Assembly: GCA_963713615.1 (NCBI GenBank) | Contig: CAVQMM010000001.1 | Span: 2,016,001 to 2,080,000 of the forward strand | Length of the DNA stretch: 64,000 nt | Direction: 5' to 3' | From: an uncultured Chlamydiae bacterium | GTDB taxonomy: Bacteria > Chlamydiota > Chlamydiia > Chlamydiales > JAJFMA01 | Shown: positions 43,392 through 46,109 of the stretch, one piece after another | Position numbering within the stretch: the stretch's first letter is position 1 | Layout: each line of letters starts with the position of its first letter | Position numbers and translations under genes: made by a program | The notes under the pieces: model-generated | The model's input: the letters and a program-made list of their open reading frames with translations, nothing else | What the model was told of the DNA's origin: nothing | The model's database searches: none

Positions 43392-43548
43392 GAAAAAAGG
43401 ACCAAAGGGACATAAATGACATAAGGAGGTAATTGCAGAAGTCCGATTCTCCGAAGTCAATTTCCTGAAAATCGGATGCCGGTGAAGAGAGAGTCATTCC
43501 CTTCCCAGGCCCGAAGGGTCGATATTGCAACAGGCCATGGCATCGCCA

Positions 43549-43857
43549 CATAGGCCTCAACCTAACAGGTCTTTTGAGCTTATATCTCAATGACTTAGGA
43601 CTTCACAATCGTATCTCGGCGCGCAGCGCTTTGGAGTGCGGTCGCTTGCGACCGCTTTTCGTTCCTTGGGACGGCAATGCTAAACGGCATTGTATGGATT
43701 CGTCGAAGGCTGCATGTACTAACTATTTTACCCTTAGGGAATTATAGTAATGCCGTTGCACACGACCGTCGCAAGGAACCCAAAGCGGTCGCAAGCGACC
43801 GCACTCCAAAGCGCTGCGCGCCGAGATACGATTGTTAGGCTTAGGTTGAGGCCTATG
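43549..43857. mobile_element. MITE-C (IS4-like ends), 309 bp
   Basis: Perfect 17-bp TIR CATAGGCCTCAACCTAA; 11-bp duplication TGGCATCGCCA at 43538-43548 and 43858-43868; contains perfect 54-bp inverted arms 43605-43658/43782-43835. Confidence 0.88.
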
Positions 43858-44044
43858 TGGCATCGCCATGGTATATGCCAAAACGGTTTTAGCAGCCTGT
43901 AGGGCTGCCATAAAGCGCATGCATAAATGGTGTTTGTAAACTGGCGTCTTGTAGCAATCCTTCAGACTGCGAAATCCCTTCCTGGCATATACCATGGCGA
44001 TGCCATGGCCTGTTGCAATATCGACCCTTCTACCATAGGATTTT

Positions 44045-44265
44045 GCAAACGATTATCGACGGTAATAGGAAAAGACAAAAAACATTTCTCTAAGGTATCA
44101 TTTTGGCCGACGAAGGTGTGGCCGTGTGCCCTTAGCGAATGTTTGTTCGCCTGGCCCGATATGCCGCCTTCGTCGTTTGCATCATCCAATAATTCCGTTC
44201 GGGATGGTGCCAATCTTCTGATTGTGGCTCTGTAAGTAGAAGTGGAATTTGGGTGAAATTTAACG
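44045..44265 (+). ncRNA. Predicted IS110 bridge RNA (target-binding loop ~44108-44175, donor-binding loop ~44184-44255); ends approximate
   Basis: Two stem/internal-loop/hairpin units whose loop strands match the target (GCCCTT, GGCCCGA) and the donor junction (CGGGATG, GTAGA). Confidence 0.85.
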
Positions 44266-44293
44266 CTCACAAACACTTAACAGGGCATTTATC

Positions 44294-45490
44294 ATGCAAA
44301 ATCAGTCCGAACTTCGTATTTGTCTAGATATCGGTAGCGTTCGACACTATGTAGCCATAGGCTTGTCCACAGGAGAACGCATCGATGGATTTTATCTAAA
44401 CCACACTTCTGAAGACATTGAGCAGTTTTTTGAGAAAATTGAGAAGCTTAGAATTTCCTATAACATGCCTGTTGTCATGGCTATGGAGGGGTTTAATGGC
44501 TATGCTAGACCCATCGATAGATATGCTCTTGATCACGGATATTCTTTGTATAGTGTCAACAACATGAAATTGGCTAGATTTAAGGAAGTTTTTCCTGGTC
44601 CAGCCAAAACAGATCCAATTGACGCTTGGGCTATTTTTAGCTTGTTTCAAGTTCAAGAGACCTTACCGTTGGCAAAAAATATTCTGCAGAAAGTAGAGCC
44701 TCCACCGGTATGCAACGAGCAACTTAAACATATTTCAAGGCGTCGTAGAGAGTTGGTAAAAGAAAAGACAAGAATCATAAATCGACTTCAAGGGGATCTA
44801 CAGGCTGTTTGCCCCGGTCTACTGTCTATTACAAAAAATCCAGCAAATCTTTGGTTTCTACGATTTCTTGCTTCGAAGGAAGACATGACCATGTTGCTTC
44901 GAATGCAAAAAAGAAGCCTGTTGCAAATCAAGGGCGTTGGAGAGGTTTATGCAGAGGAAATTCAGAAATGGCAAAAGACGGCTAAGTTCTCTTCAAAGGT
45001 TGAGTGGATAGGAAAATTAATAGTACGAGATGTCAGAAGGCTACTCGAGATGCTAGATGAAATAGCGCAGTTGGAGGTATTGATAGAGGGTTTGATCCCA
45101 CAATCCAAGATAGCATCTCGGATTGAATCTATTCCTGGATATGGTTCCATTTGTGCCGCAGAACTCGCTGGAGAGATTGGTAGTATCGATCGGTTTAAGT
45201 CGGAGGCTAGTCTAGCGCTCTACTTGGGAATAGGAATTCTGAACAAGAGTTCTGGCCAATATGAGGGGTCTCGATCGCCTCGAAATATTAACTGGAGGGG
45301 AAAGGGAGCTATGATGACCGGAGCTGCTCGACATATACAACTATGTGATGAGGCTGCACAGTACTACAAGAAGAAGAGAGCAGAGGGAAAAAAACATAAC
45401 CAAGCAGTACGAGCATTTGCCCGTCATATGATAAGAGTAATATGGTCGATACTCATACATGACAGGGATTACCGTCAGAAGGAAGACTGA
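44294..45490 (+). CDS. IS110-family DEDD recombinase/transposase
   Basis: RuvC-like DEDD residues (ICLDIG, AMEG, KTDPIDA); C-terminal SIPGYG, LAGEIG..RF, KSSG serine motif; KKHNQAVRAFAR. Confidence 0.95.
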   Translation: MQNQSELRICLDIGSVRHYVAIGLSTGERIDGFYLNHTSEDIEQFFEKIEKLRISYNMPVVMAMEGFNGYARPIDRYALDHGYSLYSVNNMKLARFKEVFPGPAKTDPIDAWAIFSLFQVQETLPLAKNILQKVEPPPVCNEQLKHISRRRRELVKEKTRIINRLQGDLQAVCPGLLSITKNPANLWFLRFLASKEDMTMLLRMQKRSLLQIKGVGEVYAEEIQKWQKTAKFSSKVEWIGKLIVRDVRRLLEMLDEIAQLEVLIEGLIPQSKIASRIESIPGYGSICAAELAGEIGSIDRFKSEASLALYLGIGILNKSSGQYEGSRSPRNINWRGKGAMMTGAARHIQLCDEAAQYYKKKRAEGKKHNQAVRAFARHMIRVIWSILIHDRDYRQKED

Positions 45491-46109
45491 GTTAGTTTAG
45501 CAAACGGGCTTTGTTCTGTTTGGCCTGAATGAACAAGGTCAGCAAATTCGGCGATGTTAGCTGAGCAGAAAAGGAGCACGGCTACTCTGCTTCGGCAACC
45601 CCATAGGAGTTGTATACAACCTTCCTAAGTAAATTCACCGTGTCCCTTCGCAGTTGAAAGGAGCACGGCTACTCTACTTCGGCTCTATAAATTTAGCAAA
45701 ATTAGAAAATAATTAAAAGTTTCAAAACCGAAGGAATTGGCATCGAAAAATCGCCTGAAAGCTACGAAAAATCTTGAAAAATTCTAGCGGGATGTCGGGC
45801 CTGGGAAGGGAGAAAAGCCTGTCTTTCCAGACTGGATAGTGCCATACCACTTAAGCTCTCTAGAATCGCCTTCTCACAAAAAAAGGTAACCTTTTTTCCC
45901 GAGAATCGATTCTCAAGGGCTCAAATAATTTTGCAATTACCTCTAAGGGACACAGGAGTATATTCTTACCAAGTCCTTTATGTCTTTTATGTCCCTTTGG
46001 TCCTTTTTGTCCATCAAGGGCGACCGCTCTCCTGAGCGCTTTGCGCATGTTATTCCGCTTTTTTAATGCCTATTGCATATCTTGCATGCCAAAAAAATAG
46101 TCATCCACT

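Follow-up and report, generated by a model that had tools for sequence, protein, structure and literature searches.

The locus considered here raises the question of whether the left end of an IS110 element in a probably chlamydial genome encodes a bridge RNA, with guides matching both the insertion site and the element's own joined ends, and of how such a system compares with those already described. The window, i.e., the whole stretch of 64,000 nucleotides that was analysed, carries an IS110-group element present in several copies. In its left end a bridge RNA of IS621 type is very probably encoded, predicted to act at a TC core with a host repeat as target, and the element was likely re-aimed from relatives directed to G-rich sites. 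The ends, the copy number, the target, the shared two-base TC, the guide complementarity, and the conserved scaffold can be read from the DNA sequence; the steps of the reaction are proposed by analogy with IS621. The features are located in Table 1.

Table 1. Coordinates of the element, its predicted RNA, and its insertion site within the window (positions numbered as in IS621).
Feature	Position	Strand	Evidence
Host repeat unit between hemH and rnc, nested inverted arms	43394..46008		sequence
Left target half (positions 1-7), part of host repeat arm	44022..44028	+	copies vs empty sites
Left TC core (positions 8-9)	44029..44030	+	9/9 copies
Left end, 263 nt	44031..44293	+	identical in 9/9 copies
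Target-binding module: outer stem, 3-bp stem 44120-22/44163-65, inner hairpin 44135-50	44108..44175	+	folds, compensatory changes
Left target guide	44126..44134	+	sequence
Right target guide, 7/7 to positions 14-8	44153..44159	+	sequence, covariation
Predicted target-loop handshake guide	44160..44161	+	sequence; register from the available text of PMC11208158
Donor-binding module: outer stem 44191-96/44244-49, inner stem from 44209-11/44226-28	44191..44249	+	compensatory changes
Left donor guide, 7/7 to donor 1-7	44200..44208	+	sequence
Split right donor guide	44231..44240	+	TG in 56/61; IS621 split alike (available text of PMC11208158)
Predicted donor-loop handshake guide AG	44241..44242	+	sequence
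IS110 recombinase, 398 aa	44294..45490	+	Pfam matches, alignment to homologues and IS621
Right end, 304 nt, 27-nt direct repeat; left donor 45788-94	45491..45794	+	sequence
Right TC core and right target half	45795..45801	+	copies vs empty sites

The element and its repeated target

The element extends from 44031 to 45794 and its catalytic motifs are intact by sequence. Its assignment to the IS110 family is based on the domains, residues, and profile match of the recombinase: the 398-aa ORF matches both PF01548 and PF02371 above the cut-off in a profile search, and residues D12, E65, D107, D110, and S320 align with D11, E60, D102, D105, and S241 of IS621, D12, E65, and D110 being invariant and D107 and S320 nearly invariant among 58 aligned homologues. 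N68 occupies the position of IS621 G63, and Asn is found there in 57 of the 58 proteins of the window clade. A single-sequence search with IS621 and the window protein gave no match; the profile search alone connects them, the family profile matching IS621 at E 7e-13 and ISCro4 at E 1.6e-13.

Nine copies of the element are present in the 3.97-Mb genome, eight with a complete and identical protein and the remaining one split by another element. IS110 copies and repeat units have themselves been invaded by other elements (G000:C1:433042-435846 and six similar 2.8-kb units; C1:1751220-1754079; C1:3548261-3551525); judged by protein features, the genes inside one repeat unit and one IS110 right end are presumably of IS66 type, and a pair interrupting one recombinase gene is taken to be IS21-like. 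The left end begins with right-donor bases 10-14 and a predicted -10 box (44031-36), and a -35 box is predicted in the right end at 45774-79. The right end measures 304 nt versus 23-64 nt in most relatives, and it is without match among the best 80 of 543 relative loci; its 27-nt direct repeat occurs at 45570 and 45657, where hairpins are predicted. The spacing from the core to the target module is 86 in the window (44031-44115) versus 61-67 in most relatives, i.e., about 24 extra bases.

The element occupies the right arm of its host repeat unit, the left arm of which contains an empty site, with junctions reading GACCCT-TC-TACC (44023-34) and CGGGATG-TC-GGGCC (45788-801). Genome-wide, TC abuts nine of nine left ends and nine of nine right ends, all insertions being at one phosphodiester position, and the comparison with 256 empty sites gives a short shared core without target duplication in every copy; the target GACCCT-TC-GGGCC and the circular donor junction CGGGATG-TC-TACC proposed by the first-pass annotation agree with these ends, the donor junction being a reconstruction. 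The empty 14-mer target has exactly 256 exact occurrences in the genome, including one near 43521 on the minus strand, within the window's own repeat unit. Of the 296 arms counted, 248 are empty arms of the main form and 14 are empty arms of the variant, 9 are filled, and 25 are others. Most arms form inverted pairs with 180 or 500 bases between them; 267 of the 272 genomic sites fitting the guide-read motif fall in this repeat. The family as a whole numbers about 290-300 arms, arranged either as inverted pairs nested in one another or as 473-bp tandem arrays, and is nearly restricted to the window genome, its motif being found in 1 of 20 related genomes, there as two diverged copies. REP repeats are linked with Y1 transposases; the genome has six Y1-transposase matches, one of which directly adjoins a cluster of variant arms, and the repeat is on this basis called REP-like, a role of such an enzyme here being no more than a candidate. 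This IS200-like transposase (C1:3243412) may be the repeat's mobiliser.

The repeat variant occupied by one copy (G000:C1:3248365, minus strand) agrees with the guide 7/7 over its left half. The guide-matching variant is not preferred (1/15 filled vs 8/264, Fisher p 0.40) and the insertions have no strand bias (6/9 lagging, p 0.51). At two of the positions distinguishing the two repeat forms the guide carries Gs, and wobble allows either form. Single arms deviate at the insertion site by a missing T, an additional T, or a deletion of 7 bases, and may be scars left by imprecise excision.

In line with the first-pass annotation, the host is in all probability a chlamydia, and an environmental one: its genome contains an Hc1 match above cut-off and weak OmcB-family matches, and gave no match for MOMP. 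The DNA was found in peat and soil runs, and the rnc-radA-hemC order at the locus is that of Chlamydia.

The predicted bridge RNA

The predicted RNA is located in the left end, which places the element in the IS110 group rather than in the IS1111 group, and is organised as two stem-enclosed loops, target then donor, on a conserved scaffold. This IS621-type layout had been recognised in the first-pass annotation, whose eight motifs and both inner-hairpin arms are all found in place in the sequence, and it is borne out by covariation within the scaffold and between guides and sites. With positions numbered as in IS621 (available text of PMC11208158), the left target guide forms on the main repeat a G.T wobble at position 3 and Watson-Crick pairs at 4-8, leaving C9 unpaired, and pairs 7/7 with the TGCCCTT repeat variant; its loop strand has 12 nt in the window versus 11 nt in 59/61. 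In the donor loop, the left guide word is followed by G44207, which is unpaired (a predicted bulge), and by T44208, which could read T8. The right donor guide is composed of TG (44231-32), which reads donor 14-13, three unpaired bases, and GTAGA, which reads 12-8, so that the 3′ strand of this loop has the order linker 2, guide 2, bulge, guide 5, handshake 2, linker 1. The handshake guides are predicted to engage the non-cognate DNA at position 7, as in IS621: once the strands have been exchanged, AG of the donor loop would pair with T7 and C6 of the target, and the target-loop guide would pair with the donor through a U44160.G7 wobble and A44161-T6, target T7 and C6 being unpaired with it. 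Neither handshake guide had been recognised in the first reading, which had also overlooked the 5′ portion of the right donor guide. All four guide words were held by 0/5000 dinucleotide shuffles of the 263-nt left end, and three of them by 2. The left end is without match in Rfam at E up to 1.

The left-end region folds better than 200/200 shuffles (z -2.93), and the predicted folds contain the outer stems as well as the inner hairpin of the target loop. On paper, the minimum-energy fold of the window RNA nevertheless buries parts of all four guides by mutual pairing, an outcome that had been named beforehand as speaking against a bridge RNA, and opening the loops costs 14 kcal/mol (-50.4 vs -36.4) for the window RNA alone. 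Among 61 distinct left-end sequences, the consensus fold comprises 32 pairs, and double-sided changes occur in 19 of 28 scaffold stem pairs; four consensus pairs join the two target guides and are devoid of double-sided changes, and the self-complementarity of these guides is due to the palindromic target. The guide-burying fold can be given less weight than the covariation, since the protein is expected to hold the guides open.

Two studies provided RNA-library contigs over 44141-44414, at a depth of 2-4 that is similar to that of coding pieces, and these contigs may be DNA; RNA libraries X18 and X19 are represented by small shares. A discrete small RNA was not seen in the RNA-library contigs, and no circle joint was present in eight contig sets, four of RNA and four of DNA, which drop rare forms. 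Contigs also lie over the right end in three of four RNA libraries, two of them stopping at 45671/45673, a weak hint.

By analogy with IS621, a circle would form from the element and its joined ends would build a TTGAAA-17-TACCAT promoter, from which the RNA would start near 44043. A recombinase tetramer would open both loops, the top strands would be cut after C9 and then exchanged, and the handshake pairs A44241-T7, G44242-C6, U44160.G7, and A44161-T6 would drive the reaction forward. The Asn at the IS621-G63 position is a candidate cause of the change of core. For the family in general, the excision mode, cut-out or copy-out, is debated in the available text of recent reports (10.64898/2026.08.31.748434; 10.1101/2025.10.25.684509; PMC13626964).

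Relatives and the position of the crossover

A metagenome scan provided 543 confirmed loci, the best 80 of which (47-58% identical) were used; guides were parsed in 62 loci, the left junction in 44, and the right junction in 55, the right junction of L094 being dropped as a mis-call and L033, L057, and L101 being omitted from the left-guide test for mis-parsed slots. Genome contigs contained four related loci, one at 56% identity; viral contigs contained none, and the 30 plasmid matches listed did not exceed 25-27% identity. Among 399 scored genomes of the phylum, one other has a close homologue (60%), with a G-rich guide. A further genome (G056, including L008 and L011), of the same order, has 19 matches to a distant IS110-like protein.

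The relatives' parse is target GGGG-TC-AG and donor GGGATGT-TC-TAC. TC is shared in 44/44 left and 53/55 right junctions, counts that are partly by construction, as the junctions were located by patterns containing core and donor motifs. The core and the parse are fixed by the near-constant distance from the left junction to the RNA, which is independent of the pattern, and by the single-T empty sites adjoining L062, L067, L068, and L092. A parse of the relatives with a GT core and a two-T target was rejected, motif counts over the best 80 of 543 loci favouring one T (19 vs 1 and 12 vs 1). On these junction sequences, the TC core noted in the first reading appears clade-wide.

In relatives that are not independent, and whose kinship inflates the guide-flank tests, the left target guide matches the flanks at 274/360 positions (shuffle mean 256.0; 40 distinct pairs) and the right target guide at 233/329 (shuffle mean 205.6; 47 distinct pairs), values reached by 0/5000 shuffles in either case; the target guides track the insertion sites across relatives. 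The expected covariation is found for the target guides; the donor guides match their sites but vary little: on the left covariation is weak (226/5000 shuffles reach it, 8 distinct pairs), and on the right there are two distinct pairs, too few to be informative, with one covarying position (37 G:C and 7 A:T loci). In 55/55 relatives, donor T7 faces a purine of the left donor guide that has no partner, and the first handshake base fits position 7 of the other DNA as A:T in 54/55 and as C:G in 43/44. The left target guide of relatives reads T8 in 41/42 loci and C9 in 40/42, so that a core fully read by the right guides alone, as first proposed, is not supported as a novel architecture. Against the main reading stands the observation that on the main repeat this guide has in the window only five Watson-Crick pairs and a wobble, missing C9.

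There is a low probability that the same RNA-guided element crosses over one base farther to the left, between mismatched cores (target TT and donor GT; in relatives GT and TT). The invariant T, present as T8 in 55/55 right junctions, would then correspond to IS621 T9, the "first handshake" bases would be core readers preset for the partner DNA, and the left target guide of the window would have 9 nt and a 1-nt linker, like IS621. The off-pattern junctions, which are informative for the position of the strand cut, are also in its favour, namely a T at left position 7 in L031 and an A at right position 9 in L033 and L065, as is the partial covariation of the relatives' left donor guide at position 0. 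However, the shared homology is exactly TC in 53/55 right junctions and in 9/9 copies of the window genome, position 7 never swaps between the junctions of these nine copies and follows the target in 43/44 relatives, and the 3′ strand of the donor loop fits IS621 base for base only in the TC register. The T8T9/G8T9 core, with the left guides in the IS621 register, had been considered as the main parse, and was demoted because of the extra donor T and the single-T empty sites of the relatives. If the mismatched crossover were true, the rule of a core common to target and donor would be lifted, and re-aiming would have entailed a swap of this asymmetry in the element.

Slightly less probable still is a selection of the target mainly by a DNA hairpin of the repeat or by the protein, with the RNA acting chiefly as donor guide and scaffold. 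The target site does lie in the loop of a predicted DNA hairpin, with a second hairpin adjacent; ISPpu10 requires a target stem-loop besides base pairing (available text of 10.64898/2026.03.19.712850), and activity of IS621 with a donor-only half-match has been reported (available text of 10.64898/2026.08.31.748434). The 7/7 match of the right target guide, the covariation of both target guides with the flanks, and the single phosphodiester position of the nine insertions argue for guide pairing, which a hairpin requirement could supplement and not substitute. That the left end has no functional RNA and that its guide matches are due to chance, which the length of the words (merely 5-7 nt) and RNA-library contigs no denser here than over coding sequence might suggest, is effectively refuted by the joint shuffle test, the compensatory stem changes, and the guide-flank covariation.

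Likely re-aiming and comparison with known systems

Under the reading preferred here, an RNA-guided element crossing over at TC, the relatives target G-rich sites while the window element targets the host repeat. A midpoint-rooted tree of 71 proteins places the window protein within a clade of 19 members (support 0.996), and six of the six members with known DNA carry a G-rich guide, so that the state of the window is likely derived and the element has likely been re-aimed naturally from ancestors targeting G-rich sites; the closest proteins have 59-64% identity, and about 11 of them are outside the DNA set, which leaves this comparison without intermediate states. The window differs from relatives in the left and right target guides and in both first handshake bases; its left-target loop has gained one base, and its right end has lost one T (donor T7), a loss that likely turns the left-donor mismatch into a bulge. 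The first handshake bases have changed together with the DNA, A44241 facing target T7 and U44160 facing donor G7 (wobble), and the second handshake bases also pair. The joined ends rebuild, at the level of sequence, a sigma-70-like promoter, with 17 nt between the -35 and -10 boxes in 34 of 39 relatives; of the other five junctions, four have, by eye, a looser -35 with the same spacing and one is a mis-call. In the window, the spacer of 17 is kept through an extra A beside the -35 box. Within this comparison, the failure of the left target guide to read C9 is best seen as a derived one-base slip and no new design.

IS621 (PMC11208160, PMC11208158; PDB 8WT6), as described in the available text of these papers, likewise has PF01548 and PF02371 with DEDD and catalytic Ser residues, a left-end RNA with the target loop followed by the donor loop, a 7-nt right guide span, a split right donor guide, handshake pairing at position 7, a junction promoter, and a REP-like target. 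In contrast, its core is CT instead of TC, and the core-reading G63 is replaced by N68 in the window protein, which is distant from it; in addition, the loop strands of the window RNA are shorter, its left guides are slipped by one base, and the right end (304 nt) exceeds the left end (263 nt). In the same papers, the left donor guide of IS621 normally ends at position 8 and T9 is read via the G63 backbone (PMC11208158), and core pairing on both strands is strongly preferred, the second T being almost invariant (PMC11208160, PMC11208158), which counts against the main reading. The element therefore falls outside the IS621/ISCro4 clade proper, characterised by a CT core, a near-invariant T9, and G63. 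ISCro4/IS622 (10.1101/2025.05.14.653916; PDB 9T56) shares the mechanism predicted here, 14-nt sites, and handshake guides, but has a CT core and is 88% identical to IS621, the window clade being far from both. In Pseudomonas putida, ISPpu10 and ISPpu9 (available text of 10.64898/2026.03.19.712850 and PMC12288879) are likewise multi-copy IS110 elements, inserted at one dinucleotide in abundant intergenic REP repeats; the core is CT in ISPpu10 and AG, as the authors write it, in ISPpu9, and the stem-loop requirement was tested in ISPpu10, whereas the hairpin at the site of the window element is a predicted one.

A readable bridge RNA is in itself ordinary, as its mode of action has already been published and predictions assign such an RNA to 85.7% of catalogued IS110 elements (PMC11208160). 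The RNA-guided mechanism is known; what is new is the TC-core clade and a likely natural re-aiming that can be traced. The cores reported in the available texts are CT (IS621, IS622, ISPpu10), AG as written (ISPpu9), and the engineered GT, AT, and TT, and a literature search found no TC-core IS110 bridge system in the texts searched, of which supplementary material and figures might show one. According to the available text of 10.64898/2026.04.29.721476, the characterised enzymes use CT, with GT, AT, and TT being less well tolerated, and orthogonal cores are sought against cross-talk between bridge RNAs; a widespread TC-core clade adds value in this direction. The slip of the left target guide suggests that the loops tolerate a shift of one base, and the joint change of the guides, both handshake bases, the element end, and the promoter spacer offers evolutionary support for the handshake model.
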